A stretch of 64,000 nucleotides of DNA, taken from assembly GCA_963676565.1 (NCBI GenBank), contig OY781089.1, positions 3,104,001 through 3,168,000 on the forward strand, written 5' to 3'. Both the position numbers and the translations under genes were made by a program. The DNA comes from Halarcobacter sp. Its GTDB lineage: Bacteria; Campylobacterota; Campylobacteria; Campylobacterales; Arcobacteraceae. Of this stretch, positions 1 through 8,638 are shown in pieces. The notes below the pieces were generated by a model. The model had not been told where the DNA came from. It saw only the letters and a list, made by a program, of their open reading frames with translations, and ran no database searches. Every line of letters begins with the position of its first letter. Position 1 is the first letter of the stretch.

Positions 1-1330
1 TAACTTCTGCATCATCAATCACATTCATTGATAGTTTTATATTATGATAATTTAAAGAACTTTTAATAATGAAGTGAGCTTTTTCACAAGTATATTTTAC
101 ATTAAAGATTTTCTTTGCCTCTTCTGGTCTAAAAAAGTTTTGAAAATCAGATATAGTTTGGGTCATATATAAAGTCAAAGCATCAGCTTCATCTATTTTT
201 TCTTCTAAATACTCTTTTGTAAATTCATTAAATTCATATGTTGCAAGCATATTCATATGAATAGCAGAAATCTCACTTAAAGGTTGTCTCCATTGATGTG
301 CAATATTTCCAATCATCTCTCCCATTGAGGCTAGTTTTGATTGCTGTATTAGAATCTGTTCTTGTTCCATTCTTTTATCTATCTCTTCTTGAATTTTATA
401 TTCTAGGTTATCTATCATATCATTCATCATAATTTTTAATTCATTTAAAATTGCACTATCAGATTTTTTTGTAAGTCTCATACCAAGGTTTCCACCTTTT
501 ATATTTTTTAAAACTTCTGTAGCATCTTTTATTAGAATCTCATTCTTTTTAATATTATCTTCAACATTTTGGAAATTTTGATTAATAGATTCTGCCATTT
601 GGAAAAACTCATCTTTAGAGTGAATTATAATTTTTTGTGCTTTATCCTTTTTATAATTTAGATACTCAAAAAATTCATTTAAACCCCTTTGAACAATATT
701 TAAAGAAGTTATAATATTGTTTGAAACAAGCCAACCTGCAATAATAGAAAATAGCATTACAACAAGAAAATAAATAGCCACTTCTATTATCAATGATTTT
801 GATTCTTCAACAGCTTTCATATAAGAATTTTCTACTTCATTTAAAAGTTCACTTTGAATAGAAAGTAAATGATTCATCAAAAGGTCAAAATGTTTTTTAT
901 CTTTTGTTGAAACATTTATATATGCCCCTTCTTCAAAGCCTCTTTTTAAATATGCTTGTGTTCTTTCAATAACCTTTTTATAGTTATTCCACAAAATAGA
1001 TGTTTTTTTATTTTCTATTTTAATTTTCAAAAAAGAGTTATCAAGTTTTTCTACTAAAAGATTTATATCTTTTTGAATTATTGATCTTTGTTTTTTATTC
1101 GGAGCAATTACAATTGACTGATTTATTCCTCTTAATTTATATAGTGGAGCTATTATATTATCTTGCAAAAGTAAAGTTTTTTCAGATTGAATATAAACAT
1201 CTTTTAATCTATCTTTTGCTTTTTCACTTGTATTTATTGAAATCCATCCAAAAATAAAAACAGAACAACATAAAATTATAAAAAGAATACTCAATTTTGC
1301 TTTGATATTAAATCTATCAAACAGTTTCAT
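1..1330 (-). CDS. Membrane-bound sensor histidine kinase (helical periplasmic sensor, HAMP-like region, HisKA); C-terminus runs off the window edge
   Basis: Not in the ORF track. ATG at 1330 overlaps the upstream TAA. Translates MKLFDRFNIKAKLSILFIIL... with two TM segments and H-box QQSKLASMGEMIGNIAHQWRQPL; frame open to position 1. Confidence 0.9.
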   Translation of the reverse strand, partial: MKLFDRFNIKAKLSILFIILCCSVFIFGWISINTSEKAKDRLKDVYIQSEKTLLLQDNIIAPLYKLRGINQSIVIAPNKKQRSIIQKDINLLVEKLDNSFLKIKIENKKTSILWNNYKKVIERTQAYLKRGFEEGAYINVSTKDKKHFDLLMNHLLSIQSELLNEVENSYMKAVEESKSLIIEVAIYFLVVMLFSIIAGWLVSNNIITSLNIVQRGLNEFFEYLNYKKDKAQKIIIHSKDEFFQMAESINQNFQNVEDNIKKNEILIKDATEVLKNIKGGNLGMRLTKKSDSAILNELKIMMNDMIDNLEYKIQEEIDKRMEQEQILIQQSKLASMGEMIGNIAHQWRQPLSEISAIHMNMLATYEFNEFTKEYLEEKIDEADALTLYMTQTISDFQNFFRPEEAKKIFNVKYTCEKAHFIIKSSLNYHNIKLSMNVIDDAEV

Positions 1331-2973
1331 TATTTAATCCTTAGGGGTACTATAGGTGTATGAAAATCGATAGGATACTTTTTCTCTTCTCTTACGGACC
1401 AATGGTTTTTCGTAATTTTTGTTTTCCATAGTGGAGCAATCCCTCCTGCATATGGTTCATATATAACTTCTTTATTAACAGCAATTACTTTATTATGAGA
1501 AGGAACTCTTAATGTATAAGCCATATCTCTAGCTCTATTTAAAATTTTAGAAACAATATCTTCATAACTTGAACTATTTATTTTTGTAGTAAAAAATTCA
1601 TCTATGTACTCTTTCATAAACTTGTCATTTGGAATAATAGACCAAGGAGAGTCATTTTCATAAATAAACATTACTGTCCAAGGGTTTTGGTAATACCAAT
1701 CATCATCACCCCAAGCTAACAAATCCCAACTTTTGGTATTTTTTGAAGATCTTGTATTTAAAAGTTGCTCATAAATATCTTTTTCACTAGTGGTAACATC
1801 ATAAACTAATTTCACACCATATTTTTCAAGTTGATACTCTATTCCTCTCCATAAAAACATAAACCTATCTTGAGTAAAAACATTTAATACTAATCCATTT
1901 AATAATTGATGTTTTTTTTCTTCTGACATGGTATGAGTTTTATACTCATTTTTTTTTGCAATCTCTTTTACCACTCTAAAGTTTATTGATGTAGCAAAAG
2001 GGGATATTGTTCCTTCTTTTTTATAAATAAAATTTAAAATATTTTCTTGATTTATTGCTTCATTTAACGCTAATCTTATCTCTTTATTTGCTAGTTTTTT
2101 ATTTCCATTTATAAGATTGAAAAATATAATAATATTATTGGTTGATTCTTTTATCACAAGCTTTGAATATTTTGACATCACAGCTTCAATTTTTTTATCA
2201 AAAGGGATTGGGGAAACATCAAGTCTACCCTCATAATTTACTACATTCTCAAAAGCCTCTTCTGTATTAAGTTGAGTATATACTGTAACTTTTTTTATTT
2301 TTGGATACTGTTTATCCCAATAATATGGGTTTGCTTCTAAAACTATCTTTTCTGTTTGTTTTTTACCAACAGCATAACCACTTTTTAATATATAAGGTCC
2401 CATCCCATAAGGTCCAGGTTCTTGAGTTCCAGTTTCAGTCTCTTCAGCTTTTGTTGGATACTTCTTTAAATACTCATCTGTAAAGAAAAAAACCCTTGCA
2501 AGGTCTGTAAAAAAAAGTTCATATTTTTGTTTCAATTCTATTTTAAGTCTATATTCATCCACTTTACTTATCTCAAAATCAATTTTATCTACATTTGAAA
2601 ATAAAAAAGGATTCTTTTTAAAATGATTAAGGTTGTTTATTGCAGAATCAATTGTAAAGGGCGTCCCATCTTGAAATTTTAGATTTCTTTTTATTTCAAA
2701 TATATAAGTATAGTCATCAACTCTTTCATGTGACTTTGCTAAATCATAAACCCAACCTCTTTCATTATCATCAGAACGAATTAAACCTGCATTTGTATTT
2801 TTTGAAATATAAATATAAGGGATACTTGGGAAAAAAACTTTTATATGAGATTTTGGATGCATATATTCAATGGCATTTGAAGAAGAAGTATCTTCTTTAA
2901 AAATCTCATCATCAAGAGCATTTGAATAAGAAAAAGCTAGAATAGCAACTAAAATAAAAAATGTTCTAACCAA
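1330..2973 (-). CDS. Periplasmic solute-binding protein, family 5 (DppA/OppA/NikA-like)
   Basis: Signal peptide; family-5 motifs LAKSHERVDDYTYIFEIKRNLKFQDGTPFT, GMGPYIL, LEANPYYW, IRLALNEAIN. Confidence 0.85.
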   Translation of the reverse strand: MVRTFFILVAILAFSYSNALDDEIFKEDTSSSNAIEYMHPKSHIKVFFPSIPYIYISKNTNAGLIRSDDNERGWVYDLAKSHERVDDYTYIFEIKRNLKFQDGTPFTIDSAINNLNHFKKNPFLFSNVDKIDFEISKVDEYRLKIELKQKYELFFTDLARVFFFTDEYLKKYPTKAEETETGTQEPGPYGMGPYILKSGYAVGKKQTEKIVLEANPYYWDKQYPKIKKVTVYTQLNTEEAFENVVNYEGRLDVSPIPFDKKIEAVMSKYSKLVIKESTNNIIIFFNLINGNKKLANKEIRLALNEAINQENILNFIYKKEGTISPFATSINFRVVKEIAKKNEYKTHTMSEEKKHQLLNGLVLNVFTQDRFMFLWRGIEYQLEKYGVKLVYDVTTSEKDIYEQLLNTRSSKNTKSWDLLAWGDDDWYYQNPWTVMFIYENDSPWSIIPNDKFMKEYIDEFFTTKINSSSYEDIVSKILNRARDMAYTLRVPSHNKVIAVNKEVIYEPYAGGIAPLWKTKITKNHWSVREEKKYPIDFHTPIVPLRIK

Positions 2974-3649
2974 TTTTATATCCTATCCCAGAAAGATTAT
3001 TTATTATATTTGTAGGTAGTTTTTTTCTTAAATGTAAAACTACAGAGCGTAAAGCACTATCTGTCATAACAAGTTCTTGCCAAACCTTATCTTGTAATTC
3101 ATCATAGGTAACAACTCTATTTTGATTTTGCATTAGTAACTCTATAAATCTAATCTCTTTTTTATTTAAAACTATTATCTCACCTTTGTATTTTAGTTTT
3201 TTAATACCAAAATCGTAAGTATAGTTTTCATCACTTTCTAATTTAATTACTTCATTAATATTTAATGATTCAATACACTTTCCTAAAGTTTCAAAAAGCA
3301 TTTTTGTAGTTATTGGTTTTACAAGATATTTTTCCATATGTAACTCTACTGCTTCTAATAAATATTTCTTTTCTGTATGTGCAGTAATCATAACTACAGG
3401 AGTGGTTTTATCGACTTTTCTTACTTCTTTTATAAACGTGATCCCATCCATTAAAGGCATATGTATATCACTTAAAATAATATCAGGTTTTTTTTCAAAA
3501 TAAAGGTCTAAAGCTTCTTTTCCATTTGTTGCTTCATAGACTTCTTTTGAGTAATATCTAAGTGTTTTTAAAATGTTTTTTCGTATACCATCTTCATCTT
3601 CTGCATAAAGAATTCTCAAAGGTTTTAATTGTAATTTTACGTTATTCAA
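2966..3649 (-). CDS. OmpR-family response regulator
   Basis: REC domain (AEDE, DIHMPLMDG, KP) plus winged-helix C-terminus (GIGYKI). Confidence 0.92.
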   Translation of the reverse strand: MNNVKLQLKPLRILYAEDEDGIRKNILKTLRYYSKEVYEATNGKEALDLYFEKKPDIILSDIHMPLMDGITFIKEVRKVDKTTPVVMITAHTEKKYLLEAVELHMEKYLVKPITTKMLFETLGKCIESLNINEVIKLESDENYTYDFGIKKLKYKGEIIVLNKKEIRFIELLMQNQNRVVTYDELQDKVWQELVMTDSALRSVVLHLRKKLPTNIINNLSGIGYKIG

Positions 3650-3819: not shown

Positions 3820-4107
3820 ATGCGAAAAATATTATTTACGGCATTAATTTTATTTCAAGCTTCTATGTTTGCTGATGCAGCTACTGCATTTAAAGCTTGT
3901 GTAGCTTGTCATGGAGCAAATGGAGAAAAAGTGGCACTTGGTAAAAGTAAAATCATCAAAGACATGAGTAAAGAAGATTTCATTAAAGCAATGAAAGGTT
4001 ATAAAGATGGAACTTATGGAGGACAACTAAAAGGTATGATGAAAGCTCAGGCTGCTAGATTAAATGATTCTGATATTGAAGCAATTGCAGAGATGATAAC
4101 AAAATAG
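3820..4107 (+). CDS. Periplasmic monoheme cytochrome c (c553-like)
   Basis: Signal peptide, CVACH heme motif, distal Met in GMMKAQ. Confidence 0.92.
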   Translation: MRKILFTALILFQASMFADAATAFKACVACHGANGEKVALGKSKIIKDMSKEDFIKAMKGYKDGTYGGQLKGMMKAQAARLNDSDIEAIAEMITK

Positions 4108-4120
4108 AAAGTAGGAAAAA

Positions 4121-4678
4121 ATGGAAGCAGTTAAAAGTAATGATTTTTCACAAAGACTAGAAAAGGTATTAATCTTAAAAAATATATTTTCAAGTAAAAA
4201 TGAAGATGAACTATTCAAAGCTTTTTCAGAATTAAATAGTGGTTTAGAAGTTGATAAAACAACTCTTGAATCAGATTTCAATCGATACTTTATAGGTCCG
4301 GATGCTCCAATAGCTCCTCCATATTCATCGGTGTATATTGATAAAACTGATTCACTTATGACAGAAACTACTCAAAAAGTAAGAGATCTTTATGAAATCA
4401 TGGGCTTTAAGAATAAGTTAAAAAATTCTATTCCTGAAGACTTTTTAGGTTTAGAGTTGGATGCTTATTATCAACTACTTTTCATTGAAGAGAAAACTAA
4501 CTATTTATCTGAGATTAGATGTTATTTTTTATTTGAACATATTAAAGTTTGGATTTACGACTTTATAGAGGCTGTGTTATCAAATAAAGATAATCCTTCT
4601 GATGCAATAAATTATATTGTTCAGGAATTAAAATTGTTTTTTGACAACGAATTTAAATACGAAGGAGATTTAAAATGA
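4121..4678 (+). CDS. TorD/DmsD-family molybdoenzyme maturation chaperone
   Basis: FIGP..APPYSSVY and PEDFLGLEL motifs; lies directly upstream of a Tat molybdoenzyme. Confidence 0.88.
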   Translation: MEAVKSNDFSQRLEKVLILKNIFSSKNEDELFKAFSELNSGLEVDKTTLESDFNRYFIGPDAPIAPPYSSVYIDKTDSLMTETTQKVRDLYEIMGFKNKLKNSIPEDFLGLELDAYYQLLFIEEKTNYLSEIRCYFLFEHIKVWIYDFIEAVLSNKDNPSDAINYIVQELKLFFDNEFKYEGDLK

Positions 4679-6954
4679 ATTACGTAAAAGAAAATGTAGA
4701 CTCAATTTTAAATGATGGAGTAAACAGACGTGGGTTTTTAAAAGGACTAGCTGCCTGTGGTGCATTATCTATGTTTCCAGGTGGAAACTTATTGGCTAAT
4801 GAATCTTTAAATACAAAGATTCCTTATTTAGGTAAAAAAAGTTATACAACTTTTAGAAATGCCTGTCCAAGAAACTGTTATGACACTTGTAGTATCAAAA
4901 CATTTGTAAAAGATGGTGTAATGCAGTTTATTGAAGGTGCAACAGAATCAACATATACAAGAGGTGGTTGTTGTGTAAAAGGAAACTCATATGTAAGAAG
5001 AGTTTATTCTCCTAAAAGAATCAAATACCCAATGTTACAAGTAGGTGGTAAAGGTTCTGGTTCTTGGAAAAGAATCTCTTGGGATGAAGCTATTAGCAGA
5101 ATTGGTGACAAACTTCTAAGTATGAAAAAAGAAGATGGACATATGCTAGGCGCTGCACTTACAAAATACTCTGGAAACTTTGGTATTACTCATTACGGTG
5201 TTGAAGGAATGTTTAGTTCTATTGGATATACAACAAGATTTGGTGGAACTCCATGTTGGCCAGCAGGTATTGATGCACAAAATTTTGATACAGGTAATAT
5301 GTGGTGTAATGACCCAGAAGAAATGAAAGATAGTAAATATATCATTCTTTGGGGAGTTAATCCAGCTTCAAACTCTGTTCATAGTATGAAATATATCTAT
5401 GAAGCAAAAAGAAAAGGAGCTAAAGTTATTGTAATTGATCCATTATTTACAGAAACTGCTTCTAAAGTAAATGAATATTATCAAGTTAAAGCTGGAAGTG
5501 ATGGCTTATTAGCTTTAGCAATGGCAAAAATCATTGTTGAAAATAACTTGCATGACAAAAAATGGCTTAAGAAAAACTCTCACGGATATGATAAATTTGA
5601 AAAATATTTAAAAACTATATCAGTTAAAGAAGCTTCTGAAGTAAGTGGTCTTTCAGAAAAAATGATAAAAGAGATTGCACTAGGTTTTGCAAAAGCAGAT
5701 CCTGCAACAGTATGGATTGGATATGGTATTCAAAGACATACAAATGGTGGTTCTATGGTTAGAGCTATTGATGCACTAGTAGCAGTTACTGGAAATGTTG
5801 GTAAATATGCAGGTGGAGCTAGATATGGACACTTAAATACTTGGGGATTTAATTACAATGCAATGACAAATCCTAAACCAGAAGGAAGTATTGGTTATAC
5901 AGGTTCAGCTAAATCTATGGGTGATATTCATGGTGGTGGAGAAGGTGATCATAAAGTTAAATATTCTGATAGATATCTAAATATTAACAAAACAGCTGAA
6001 GGTATTTTAACAGCAACAGATCCAAAAATCAAACTTTTATGGGTTGCATGTAAAAACCCATTAGCTCAAGATTTTGATAGAAATAAAATTATTAAAGCAT
6101 TTAATACTGTTGATATGATAGTTGTTGCTGATCAATTCTTTAACGAAACTACAAAATGGGCAGATATTGTTCTTCCTGTAACAACGCAGTTTGAAGAGTA
6201 TGATGTAAATGTGTCTTATTGGCACTATTGGTTAAGCTTAAATGAACAAGCAATTAAACCACTTCATGAAGTAAAATCTGACCTTGAAATTGCATCATTA
6301 TTATCTAAATATATGAATAAAAAAGAGGCAGGTTCTTGTACTTTCCCTCAAAAATATGATAGTAAAAAGTTAACTATTAAAGAGTTTAACAAAGGTATAT
6401 ATGATCAATTTGGAATTAAATCTTGGAAAGAATTACAAGATGGTCCAAAAAAAGCTAAAGCAGTAATTCCTTTTGCTGATGGAAAATTTAATACTCCAAG
6501 TGGTAAATTTGAATTCTATTCTGAAAAAGCTGTAGAGTACGGACACACTGCATTACCTGAATATTTAGAAGTTAGAAAACCTTATGATAAATATAGATTA
6601 ACAACTCTACACTGTAGATATTCTTTACATTCACAATTCCAAAATTTAGATTGGATGGAAGATATTCATCCTGAACCATTTGTTTATGTGAATCCAGAAG
6701 ATGCAGAATACAAAAGAATTAAAACTGGAGATACTGTAGCAGTATTTAATAAACAAGGTCTTTTAAGACTTAAAGCAAAAGTTACTGATAATACACCAGT
6801 TGGAACATTTATGATGTATGAACAGTGGTACAACAATAGTATTTATAATGTAAATGAATTAGTTGATGATACATCTTCTGACATGGGATCATTTAAAACA
6901 GGTGCACCTGGAATTGCACTACAAGATACTTATGTAAATATAAGAAAAGTATAA
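4675..6954 (+). CDS. Tat-exported bis-MGD molybdopterin oxidoreductase catalytic subunit (DMSO reductase superfamily), substrate unknown
   Basis: Twin-Arg NRRGFLK; FS0 motif CPRNCYDTC...CVKG; RISWDEA; WGVNPA; ADIVLP; C-terminal molydop-binding region (VNPEDA); candidate Cys ligand in TPCWPAG. Confidence 0.92.
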   Translation: MNYVKENVDSILNDGVNRRGFLKGLAACGALSMFPGGNLLANESLNTKIPYLGKKSYTTFRNACPRNCYDTCSIKTFVKDGVMQFIEGATESTYTRGGCCVKGNSYVRRVYSPKRIKYPMLQVGGKGSGSWKRISWDEAISRIGDKLLSMKKEDGHMLGAALTKYSGNFGITHYGVEGMFSSIGYTTRFGGTPCWPAGIDAQNFDTGNMWCNDPEEMKDSKYIILWGVNPASNSVHSMKYIYEAKRKGAKVIVIDPLFTETASKVNEYYQVKAGSDGLLALAMAKIIVENNLHDKKWLKKNSHGYDKFEKYLKTISVKEASEVSGLSEKMIKEIALGFAKADPATVWIGYGIQRHTNGGSMVRAIDALVAVTGNVGKYAGGARYGHLNTWGFNYNAMTNPKPEGSIGYTGSAKSMGDIHGGGEGDHKVKYSDRYLNINKTAEGILTATDPKIKLLWVACKNPLAQDFDRNKIIKAFNTVDMIVVADQFFNETTKWADIVLPVTTQFEEYDVNVSYWHYWLSLNEQAIKPLHEVKSDLEIASLLSKYMNKKEAGSCTFPQKYDSKKLTIKEFNKGIYDQFGIKSWKELQDGPKKAKAVIPFADGKFNTPSGKFEFYSEKAVEYGHTALPEYLEVRKPYDKYRLTTLHCRYSLHSQFQNLDWMEDIHPEPFVYVNPEDAEYKRIKTGDTVAVFNKQGLLRLKAKVTDNTPVGTFMMYEQWYNNSIYNVNELVDDTSSDMGSFKTGAPGIALQDTYVNIRKV

Positions 6955-6964
6955 GGAGGAAGTT

Positions 6965-7600
6965 ATGCAAAAAGCTTTTTTAGTAGATAGTGAAAAATGT
7001 TTAGGGTGTAATACTTGTGCAATGGCATGTAAAAACCAATATCACCAAGATAAAGGGATATTATGGAGAAAAGTAAGAGAAATTGGCCATGAAGACTATA
7101 GAACAGATCAAAATAATATTTTACCTACTCTAGTATGGTATGCAAAACCTGAAAAAGTAGATGTTCCTGCTGAAAGATACTATGCATCAATTGCATGTAA
7201 TCACTGTGAAGAACCAGCTTGTGTTGCTATATGTCCTGTTCAGGCTCATACAAAAGATCCAGAAACAGGTATTTGTAAACACGATCAAAGTTTATGTATT
7301 GGATGTGGAGGATGTGTAAAAGCATGTCCATTTGGTGCATCTAAATTCAATGAAAGATTAGGAAAAGCAGAAAAATGTAGTATGTGTTGGGAAAGACAAG
7401 CTGATGGTAAACTACCTGCTTGTGTTCAATCTTGTCCAGTAGAAGCTATTAAACTTATCGATATTCATGATGAAAAATATGCAAATATAGGAGAAAAACA
7501 TCCTTTAGGACTTGATTATGCGGTTGAAGCTCCAACAAGACCAAGTACAAGATTTATTAAACCAAAAATGCCGGATAATATATATCGATTAGAAGGATGA
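6965..7600 (+). CDS. DmsB-like 4x[4Fe-4S] electron-transfer subunit
   Basis: Cys groups CLGCNTCAMAC, CNHCEEPACVAICP, CIGCGGCVKACP, CSMC...ACVQSCP. Confidence 0.93.
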   Translation: MQKAFLVDSEKCLGCNTCAMACKNQYHQDKGILWRKVREIGHEDYRTDQNNILPTLVWYAKPEKVDVPAERYYASIACNHCEEPACVAICPVQAHTKDPETGICKHDQSLCIGCGGCVKACPFGASKFNERLGKAEKCSMCWERQADGKLPACVQSCPVEAIKLIDIHDEKYANIGEKHPLGLDYAVEAPTRPSTRFIKPKMPDNIYRLEG

Positions 7601-7617
7601 TAAGATAAGGATATATA

Positions 7618-8028
7618 ATGAAAATTATATTCACACTTCTTTTTCTTTTTTTAACATTACTTTTTGGCGAGCAAGACTCGCCAAAAGTATGTCCTATAAA
7701 TAAAAAAGATTTTAACTACTACGCTAATCAGAAAGTTGATGTTTCAATTCCTTTAGAATTTTCTTTAGGAAAAAATGAGATAAAAATAAAATTGAGTGAA
7801 ACAGAGTATCCATCAGGATATAATGTTGTAGCTTTTATTGATGTGGAAGTGAGTTCATCAAAAGTTGAACCTGAAGTAGAAAATGGTATTCCAATTACTT
7901 CTATAGAGTTTTTTGAAAAAGGAAAATATGAATTACAATTAAATGTAAATATCATATATAGAAGTAGCTGAGCAGGTGTACAAGTTGCTAGTTTAGCAAG
8001 ACAAAAAATCTCCGTAGCTATTAAATAA
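7618..8028 (+). CDS. Putative secreted selenoprotein, 136 aa if UGA 7969-7971 is read as Sec (...YRSS-U-AGVQVASLARQKISVAIK); the ORF track stops it at 7971
   Basis: Signal peptide; 18 sense codons follow the UGA up to TAA 8026-8028; SECIS-like hairpin follows; terminator hairpin begins at the TAA. Confidence 0.7.
7985..7999 (+). promoter_or_regulatory. Candidate bacterial SECIS hairpin
   Basis: TTGCTA-GTT-TAGCAA; stem starts 13 nt after the UGA, and the apical loop begins with GU after a 19-nt spacer from the UGA. Confidence 0.65.
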
Positions 8029-8055
8029 AATAAGCCCTATAAAATGGGCTTATTT
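8028..8055. terminator. Bidirectional intrinsic terminator between convergent genes
   Basis: AAATAAGCCC-TATAAAAT-GGGCTTATTT. Confidence 0.75.
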
Positions 8056-8528
8056 AATTGATAGGGATTATACCTCACAAACTTTACATAATTTTTTATA
8101 CCTTCAAATATACCACCATCAAGATTAATCACCCTTTCATAACCTTTTGACTTTAAGAGTTTAGATACTTTAATTGATTCATTACCATTTTGAGAAAGTA
8201 TTGCAAATTCACTATTTTTATCAATAATAGTATTTAAATATCTTAGAAATTGGCTTTCGTCAAACCTTCTATCTTTACGATAAAAAGTTAATAATATACT
8301 ATGTTTTAAAACAGCTGTTCTTTTCAAGTCTTGTTCATTTCTAATGTCAATGATTGGTATATCTTTGAATAAAAAATCATTAGATAATTTTGCATGTTTT
8401 ACCTTTGTAGTATCCACTTCTAATAATTTAAGAACAAACACTACTGAAACCACTATTCCTAAAAAAATTGAAATTGTTACTACTATTAACTTTTTTGCTA
8501 AACCTAAGGTTTCATTATTATTTTCCAT
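8037..8528 (-). CDS. Membrane-anchored rhodanese-like domain protein lacking the catalytic Cys
   Basis: N-terminal TM; IIDIR and VINLDGGI rhodanese motifs; active-site loop reads ILSQNGNES. Start moved to ATG 8528 (MENNNE) with GGA upstream. Confidence 0.7.
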   Translation of the reverse strand: MENNNETLGLAKKLIVVTISIFLGIVVSVVFVLKLLEVDTTKVKHAKLSNDFLFKDIPIIDIRNEQDLKRTAVLKHSILLTFYRKDRRFDESQFLRYLNTIIDKNSEFAILSQNGNESIKVSKLLKSKGYERVINLDGGIFEGIKNYVKFVRYNPYQLNKPIL

Positions 8529-8638
8529 TTTAATTCCATTATTGTGTGCCAAGCTAAGGGAGGGAGAGAAACTTGGCACGGTTTGTGTTTTTTTGATTTA
8601 ATTTTAAATATTTTTTTAAGAGTAAGCTTAGAGAGTTC

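Follow-up and report, generated by a model that had tools for sequence, protein, structure and literature searches.

In the selenoprotein genes of epsilonproteobacteria, the selenocysteine insertion sequence (SECIS) is a hairpin of 5 or 6 bp that lies a few nucleotides past the TGA and has an invariant G in its loop (PMC4607533). Most characterised selenoproteins have thioredoxin-like folds, according to a 2026 review (PMC13188914). Here we describe a gene at positions 7618..8028 (plus strand) of a 64,000-nucleotide stretch of DNA from Halarcobacter sp. (GenBank assembly GCA_963676565.1, contig OY781089.1, positions 3,104,001 to 3,168,000 of the forward strand), which was analysed as a whole and is called the window in the following. 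The gene resembles fdhF/fdhA and selD-type genes, which carry a SECIS inside the open reading frame (ORF): its UGA lies opposite Cys in homologues and is followed by a hairpin of the 5/6-bp type with a G in the loop, and the genome has the machinery for selenocysteine (Sec). The spacing between UGA and hairpin matches that of the genome's own fdhA and selD elements. Unlike the products of those genes, the small protein encoded here is predicted to be immunoglobulin-like (Ig-like) and not thioredoxin-like, has no UxxC or CxxU motif, and fits none of the listed families with which it was compared.

Outside the field of recoding, a close comparison is SoxY, a small periplasmic protein with an Ig-like fold, a GGCGG motif and one essential Cys that is flanked by small residues. 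Sox intermediates are attached to this Cys covalently, and the consensus model has the molybdoenzyme SoxCD oxidise the sulfane so bound (PMC5336275). The small protein shares with SoxY its size, its predicted location and a single essential-looking residue among small neighbours (S-S-C/U-G/A-G), and its gene accompanies those for a molybdenum enzyme and a c-type cytochrome, which the protein presumably serves. A precedent for Sec as a carrier is the likewise small glycine reductase selenoprotein A (GrdA), the carrier chemistry of which is that of a selenoether. GrdA carries an intermediate, covalently attached, from one enzyme component to another (PMC13188914).

The enzyme encoded next to the small protein is comparable to DmsABC/YnfEFGH. 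Common to both are a twin-arginine translocation (Tat) signal, an N-terminal iron-sulfur (Fe-S) motif, a catalytic subunit of the molybdenum-bis(pyranopterin guanine dinucleotide) (Mo-bisPGD) type, a DmsB-like subunit and a chaperone of the NarJ family; the versions in Desulfobacterota also carry a DmsC anchor. Our operon differs in that its scores are far under the equivalog cut-offs, in that a cytochrome c stands at the anchor's place in the Arcobacter-type operon, and in that a fourth gene with Cys or Sec is obligatory here, whereas classical DmsABC is without one.

The gene starts with the ATG at 7618 and has 117 sense codons before the TGA at 7969-7971. Behind this TGA the frame continues for 18 codons, AGVQVASLARQKISVAIK, as far as the TAA at 8026-8028, so that the full gene would have 136 codons, with the UGA as Sec118 in a motif SS-U-[AG]-G. 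The perfect hairpin TTGCTA-GTT-TAGCAA (7985..7999, plus strand) follows 13 nt past the UGA. Its 6-bp stem closes a GUU loop, with 19 nt between the UGA and the first loop base. A terminator-like hairpin between convergent genes (8028..8055, scored by the scan on the minus strand) has its onset at the last base of the TAA. These features had been pointed out in an earlier note, made from this DNA alone, and reading the sequence directly confirmed every one of them, including the start of the terminator at the end of the extension, with which it overlaps by a single base. The earlier note had read them as the signs of a hidden selenoprotein, and this claim is supported: the UGA falls on an invariant Cys, the extension is conserved in 38 of 38 loci, the hairpin shows compensatory change, and the Sec machinery is present. 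We have little doubt that 7618-8028 is a genuine selenoprotein gene that has been mis-annotated, as far as comparison of sequences can tell. Public entries stop at the UGA; those of the Arcobacter group that come from NCBI have 117 amino acids and no name, and those of Sulfurospirillum are a "hypothetical protein" of 122 amino acids. One database protein of 136 amino acids (P0003) has W at the Sec column. The codon in its source contig is TGA, and the W presumably arose because the gene caller took TGA for Trp.

The earlier note had proposed to look for conservation behind the UGA, for homologues with Cys at its position, for hairpins retained in the UGA forms, and for the sel genes. All of these were found. 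For the first, the read-through protein was searched in six frames against 61 related genomes. Five further genomes of the same genus matched with 70-74% identity over residues 1-134/136 and one internal TGA each, and one genome of another family matched with 39% identity and again one internal TGA. One more genome of the same genus (G001) matched with 35% identity and has no stop inside. A class-wide sample of 401 genomes added a second genus, in which 9 of 19 genomes match, each with one TGA. Judging from the names of cluster members, the two genera are the Arcobacter/Halarcobacter group and Sulfurospirillum. Two marginal hits, in G030 (E = 0.006) and in G209 (E = 8e-6), are embedded in frames longer than 1,200 amino acids and were set aside as generic Ig-like similarity. 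Metagenomes were scanned with a degenerate DNA pattern that extends up to and just past the critical codon, at which TGA, TGC or TGT was permitted. The scan returned 23 loci, and every one is a family member with TGA and an open in-frame extension.

Together with 15 species genomes from the two Campylobacterota genera, these metagenome contigs make up 38 UGA loci. An open, conserved extension of 18-22 codons is found in all 38, and both the frame and the residues are retained. The extension is kept as protein, with forms such as AGVQVASLARQ, GG[IM][LQ]VAS[LI]A, GGIK[VF]AS[LM]A[RK]Q and GGIQFASMVRQ; variants across lineages include, beside the first of these, GGILVASLANTK and GGIKFASMARQ. For two groups of sequences, the mean pairwise DNA identity ahead of the UGA is 0.865/0.794; over the extension it is 0.833/0.858, and past the second stop it falls to 0.352/0.424. 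In all 61 Cys forms, the extension has its homologous counterpart in the C-terminal strand that follows the Cys.

These Cys forms come mainly from a set of 1.84 billion representative proteins that was searched with a profile; 80 representatives matched at E <= 0.001. Six of them stop at the Ser just before the Cys/Sec column; the other 74 are not cut there and mostly have 130-150 residues. An alignment of 66 rows was built from 60 of the 74 non-truncated representatives, the Cys form of G001, and five UGA forms entered as Cys. Only two of its columns are invariant, Gly102 and Cys/Sec118. Column 118 holds Cys in 61 of 61 naturally full-length members, within a consensus (K/R)-S-S-C-G-G. As the UGA is aligned with this column, it sits on the single invariant functional side chain of the family. 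A second Cys, Cys25 (codon 7690..7692, plus strand; CP[IL] motif near the mature N-terminus), is invariant in the eight close homologues, and Cys occupies its column in 42 of the 66 members, usually as C-P. In 11 of the 66, the segment from residue 15 to the motif is free of any other Cys. By its alignment, the small protein thus belongs to an unnamed family of small, apparently exported proteins, the only invariant side chain of which is Cys/Sec.

The Cys form in G001 reads ...VYKNS-C-GGIQFSNL..., with the codon TGT, and is encoded in the same operon as in the window. It cannot be explained by loss of the Sec trait, which is ruled out by the presence of selA and tRNA-Sec in that genome. This small protein (locus L039, 7246-7641) is only 34-35% identical to that of the window, though the Mo and Fe-S subunits are 89% identical. 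The partner gene in G001 seems to have been replaced, or to be evolving much faster than the enzyme. Another unusual homologue is a representative of 478 amino acids (P0066), in which profile positions 26-76, the N-terminal half of the domain, are matched six times; this protein appears to be a relative of the fold with tandem repeats.

The hairpin was compared in 22 distinct 48-nt sequences that start with the UGA and align without gaps. Helix columns 17-22 pair with columns 26-31 in 132 of 132 cells, and the loop is G-U-N in all 22 sequences. Pair 21-27 is U-A in nine sequences, A-U in eight and C-G in five; another pair is G-C in 21 and G-U in one, and four pairs are constant. None of 500 shuffles matches the observed pairing or covariation score, and shifting the partner by 1-3 columns leaves only 24-50% of the cells paired. 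The covarying pair connects two synonymous sites, the third positions of an Ala codon and of a Leu/Ile/Met codon, and where amino acids do change in the codons of the hairpin (L to I or M, A to V), pairing is preserved. In several lineages there is an extra lower stem, in registers that differ. The Cys form of G001 has no hairpin at the corresponding place. In its shape, the hairpin at 7985-7999 agrees with the published epsilonproteobacterial SECIS, and the distance from the UGA to the start of the loop (19 nt) compares with 16-18 nt in the selD and fdhA genes of this genome.

The genome encodes what is needed to decode such an element. We found selA (562 bits, cut-off 268), selB (299 bits, cut-off 242) and a tRNA-Sec with the anticodon TCA (49.4 bits, gathering score 47), which are grouped near 1.95 Mb, as well as two selD and two fdhA genes with one in-frame TGA in each. 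All of them lie in a "selenium neighbourhood" (G000:C1, ~1,949,800-1,993,300), where selB, selA and tRNA-Sec are followed by the two selD and two fdhA paralogues within 45 kb. Both selA and tRNA-Sec are also present in five of five other carriers tested.

A number of observations speak against recoding or lessen the force of what has been said so far. Folding of 7969-8030 with RNAfold gave z = 0.08 relative to shuffled sequences, 106 of 200 of which fold at least as well. A scan of 7800-8150 against Rfam at E <= 10 gave chance-level matches only and no SECIS family. As a background test we used the 383 ORFs of at least 100 amino acids that end in TGA in this genome of 28% G+C. In 52 of them the frame stays open for 18 codons or more past the TGA, and 13 are followed at a SECIS-like spacing by a perfect hairpin that has a stem of 6 bp or longer and a G at loop position 1 or 2. 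Both features together were observed in two ORFs, with about 1.8 expected, and our gene is one of the two. The other (G000:C1 near 610,700, minus strand) encodes 316 amino acids and has a 21-codon extension and a perfect 6-bp hairpin with a G early in the loop. In this one sequence, the pattern is no better than chance, and the significance of the recoding case comes from the comparative evidence only. That evidence has restrictions of its own. The hairpin is small and only two of its six pairs vary. The 22 sequences are related, hence the shuffle counts overstate their independence. Finally, the hairpin lies within the conserved codons V/F-A-S-L/I/M-A/V, and part of its conservation is due to selection at the level of the protein.

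A structural model of the small protein was built with AlphaFold2 from the 66-row alignment (mean predicted local distance difference test, pLDDT, 94; predicted template modelling score, pTM, 0.76). It begins with a helix at residues 2-15, consistent with the putative Sec-type (general secretory) signal peptide that we read by eye at about residues 1-17 (7618..7668, plus strand; MK, a hydrophobic run, then G/E), and continues with a less ordered stretch that holds Cys25. The remainder is modelled as an Ig-like beta-sandwich, the last strands of which (102-115 and 121-135) enclose S-S-U-A-G with Sec118 in the turn, which is exposed and protrudes from the fold. This model, together with structure matches to Ig/PKD/filamin-like domains, bears out the proposal of the earlier note that the protein has an Ig-like fold with Sec in the loop of a beta-hairpin. 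According to the model, the product that ends at the UGA would lose the final strand of the core.

Searches for a described relative of this protein found none. With Foldseek against the PDB (best E = 9.6e-4) and with VIA-align wide (best Z = 7.7) only generic Ig/PKD/filamin-like domains were matched and no functional relative, and for a natural Cys form (P0016) the ESM Atlas gave only unnamed clusters at 0.80-0.82, which is under the useful range. There was no Pfam match for the query and no Pfam family common to the 66 members, and NCBIfam release 20.0 (June 2026) had no family for the small protein at E <= 0.01. Among the 119 families in the table of the May 2026 review (PMC13188914) no row fits by domain identifier or motif; this comparison covers Table 1 of the review, and the supplements of this paper and of those below could hold it as an unnamed candidate. 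The families named in the main text of a study of the epsilonproteobacterial selenoproteome (Fdh, SelD, SelW, thioredoxin, thiol peroxidase and DUF466; PMC4607533) do not include it, and it is not one of the nine families that deep-Sep is described as reporting. The literature searched for the SSCGG motif yielded nothing relevant. The statement in the earlier note that this is not a described family agrees with Pfam, NCBIfam and the selenoprotein lists searched. The mechanism of recoding is textbook knowledge; as far as checked, what is new is the protein family, the fold class for a selenoprotein, and the role as a fourth component of an enzyme of the DMSO reductase family.

The gene had been placed by the earlier note at the end of an operon for a periplasmic Mo/Fe-S enzyme, and domain searches agree with this: there are four co-oriented genes upstream and the Mo subunit is predicted to be Tat-exported. 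The first gene (3820..4107, plus strand) encodes a small c-type cytochrome of 95 amino acids (Pfam Cytochrom_C, E = 6.8e-8), which is also found in G001. It is followed on the same strand by a maturation chaperone of the NarJ/TorD/DmsD type (4121..4678; Pfam Nitrate_red_del, E = 6.8e-22), by the Mo-bisPGD catalytic subunit of 759 amino acids (4675..6954), and by a DmsB-like subunit of 211 amino acids for four Fe-S clusters (6965..7600; Fer4_11, E = 2.7e-24). The Mo subunit has Molybdopterin, Molydop_binding and Fe4S4 domains and a Tat signal (Pfam E-values 5.5e-49, 2.1e-19, 1.7e-7 and 8.7e-4). Its kinship to solved enzymes is distant, the best match among them having E = 2.7e-47. By the features of the Mo and Fe-S subunits in Pfam and NCBIfam, the enzyme is a member of the dimethyl sulfoxide (DMSO) reductase family. 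It is under the cut-off for all 25 NCBIfam families listed of the 28 matched, which include DmsA/YnfE, PhsA, ArrA, TtrA, TorA and FdhA; the best scores listed are 280.8 bits for Fdh-alpha (cut-off 666) and 280 bits for dmsA_ynfE (cut-off 777.7). In the source records for Sulfurospirillum, the Mo subunit of the cluster is called "DMSO reductase", as an annotation only. A DMSO reductase cluster in S. multivorans, which may or may not be this operon, is likewise so named by annotation (PMC4794192).

The small protein and the enzyme occur together. All 15 genomic UGA loci have the Fe-S and Mo genes directly upstream of the small gene. Of the 23 metagenome loci, 22 show the Fe-S gene and 18 the Mo gene; the other five contigs end before the position of the Mo gene. 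Nine loci with the Cys form were found in Desulfobacterota; seven of them have an orthologous Mo subunit that is 56-59% identical to that of the window, and in the four whose neighbours were scanned, chaperone and Fe-S subunit are present too. An orthologue of the Mo subunit (E <= 1e-100) occurs in eight of the 61 relatives, which are exactly the eight that have the small protein, and in none of the 53 others (these genomes are kin, so that the counts do not amount to a statistical test). From this pattern of linkage, the small protein is very probably a dedicated partner of the neighbouring molybdoenzyme. Prediction of a complex between the Mo subunit of the window and a natural Cys-form partner ended with a score of 0.00 and no model, which counts neither way. 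The module for electron transfer varies between lineages: it is the small c-type cytochrome in the Arcobacter group (3820-4107 in the window), and in Desulfobacterota a DmsC-type anchor, which was identified in the two loci scanned at that position (L047, 4379-5179, and L048, 5139-5942). In the Sulfurospirillum locus L038, no cytochrome gene was found beside the operon.

Our best explanation, which we regard as likely when taken as a whole, is that the gene encodes an exported selenoprotein of 136 residues, produced under the direction of the hairpin and dedicated to the molybdoenzyme. The UGA at 7969-7971 would be decoded as Sec with the help of the 6-bp hairpin with its G-U-N loop at 7985-7999, by way of the genome's SelA, SelB, SelD and tRNA-Sec. 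The mature protein would have about 119 residues and form an Ig-like beta-sandwich with Sec118 in a tight S-S-U-A-G turn. It would be exported separately through the general secretory pathway and would then meet the Tat-exported enzyme, whose clade comprises a chaperone, the Mo subunit, the Fe-S subunit, and either a DmsC anchor or a cytochrome c. More tentatively, the lone Cys/Sec among its small neighbours may present a chalcogen-containing group at the Mo active site, or accept one there.

For the chemistry, the earlier note had suggested a redox partner or a carrier of S, Se or substrate, a role that is still an inference. Our own preferred but tentative proposal, in which we have limited confidence, is that Cys/Sec may be a covalent carrier or a nucleophile that serves the Mo site. 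We count the 11 of 66 members without a second Cys as support for a chemistry that depends on a single residue. The predicted place of Cys/Sec in a tight beta-turn and not on a long flexible arm fits this proposal poorly. SoxY, on which such a carrier could be modelled, also differs in several points. None of the 66 members has a match to SoxY in Pfam at E <= 0.1, the Cys of the small protein is part of an internal beta-turn, with 18 residues to follow before the C-terminus, and not of a C-terminal arm, no partner gene of the SoxZ kind was seen here, and the enzyme belongs to the DMSO reductase family and not to the sulfite oxidase family. GrdA, for its part, is cytoplasmic, has a CxxU motif, belongs to an unrelated fold and pathway, and showed no sequence similarity in any of our searches. 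A wider version of the idea, which we hold to be somewhat more doubtful, is that the whole enzyme clade might act not just on a free small molecule but through a protein-borne chalcogen, with Cys/Sec on its protruding turn entering the Mo funnel as a covalent substrate carrier or as a catalytic residue or ligand in trans. The system would then be a reductive counterpart of SoxY-SoxCD, in which Campylobacterota would have upgraded the residue to selenocysteine.

The best of the other explanations accepts a genuine selenoprotein and makes it a thiol/selenol oxidoreductase. Cycling through an intramolecular selenenylsulfide between Cys25 and Sec118, it could return an oxidised residue of the enzyme to the reduced state or act as reductant on a product of the disulfide type, and would carry no substrate. 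Cys25 is available for this in all eight close homologues and in 42 of 66 members, most catalogued selenoproteins are thought to be redox-active (PMC13188914), and the Mo subunit offers invariant Cys residues beyond its Fe-S motif (C194, C211, C459 and C555, in 14 of 14 sequences). On the other hand, column 25 is without Cys in 24 of the 66 members, and in 11 the stretch from residue 15 to the motif contains no second Cys whatsoever; a two-Cys cycle therefore cannot be the mechanism of the family as a whole. The protein also has neither a thioredoxin-like fold nor a CxxC/CxxU motif. We consider this explanation unlikely.

Less probable again is a structural role, in which the small protein is a third subunit and its Cys/Sec serves as ligand to a metal or cofactor; in the most extreme case this would be the Mo itself, in trans, and otherwise another metal or a product such as a soft metalloid. 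Sec is a metal ligand in formate dehydrogenase (PMC13188914), and the weak structural matches of the small protein include the copper protein CrdA. The enzyme's own sequence gives this idea some room. Residues 185-203 of the Mo subunit, Y-T-T-R-x-x-G-T-P-C-W-P-A-G-I-D-A-Q-N, are invariant in 14 of 14 orthologues except for both x. The Sec ligand of a solved formate dehydrogenase aligns with the variable G190 and not with the invariant C194 four residues on, and the Mo ligand of the clade is consequently not settled from sequence. C194, invariant in all 14 and within the alignment uncertainty of the ligand position, is nevertheless the simpler candidate, and a single Cys with Gly and Ser neighbours makes a poor metal site alone. 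No case is known to us in which an enzyme of this family receives its ligand in trans.

That the UGA is an ordinary stop behind a 117-residue product, with the downstream sequence conserved for reasons of the 3' untranslated region or terminator, or else read through with a standard amino acid, is hardly credible: although public annotation ends at the UGA (117 and 122 amino acids) and the features of the single sequence are at chance level in this genome, the extension is conserved as protein across lineages and homologous to the strand after the Cys in 61 Cys forms, conservation collapses only beyond the second stop, the UGA coincides with one of the only two columns that are invariant, a core strand of the predicted fold would be missing from the truncated product, and the sole 136-residue entry with W derives from a contig with a TGA codon.

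The operon is flanked by a sensing trio, all on the minus strand of the window (2-3649). An OmpR-type response regulator, recognised by its domain match (2966..3649), is divergent from the operon and is followed by a family-5 periplasmic solute-binding protein (1330..2973; Pfam SBP_bac_5, E = 1.9e-34) and by the N-terminal part of a histidine kinase that runs off the window (2..1330), which is 40% identical to a HATPase_c protein of locus L038. The same trio flanks the operon in L038 (7941-11947), and in G001 (L039, 979-3340) the binding protein was confirmed with an ORF of the size of the regulator beside it. In the Desulfobacterota loci L041 and L042 a PAS-LuxR regulator takes the place of the trio. 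The solute-binding protein is probably the ligand sensor of the two-component system.

On its other side the operon converges with a gene on the minus strand (8037-8579) for a membrane-anchored protein with a rhodanese-like domain, in which by eye Ser stands at the place of the catalytic Cys (...LSQNGNES...). In Sulfurospirillum (L038, 2983-3726, minus strand) a fusion of a ferredoxin-thioredoxin-reductase beta chain with a rhodanese, its active-site Cys kept, flanks the operon. Given the Ser in the window copy, we regarded the rhodanese-like neighbour as a weak clue to sulfur transfer.

Current annotation of the small protein cuts off its essential residue along with the last strand. With the UGA read as Sec, the inventory of prokaryotic selenoproteins gains a family, and an atypical one: exported, Ig-like and without a redox motif. 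The Cys/Sec column pinpoints the functional residue of an unnamed family of 80 clusters at 50% identity. Through the small protein, residue 118 provides a mutable handle on the substrate and mechanism of a conserved, uncharacterised respiratory molybdoenzyme in Campylobacterota and Desulfobacterota, and the family-5 binding protein may reveal the inducer of the system and hence the substrate of the enzyme. If the enzyme clade does work through a protein-borne chalcogen, the largest respiratory molybdoenzyme family would be seen to operate by a principle that is new for it.

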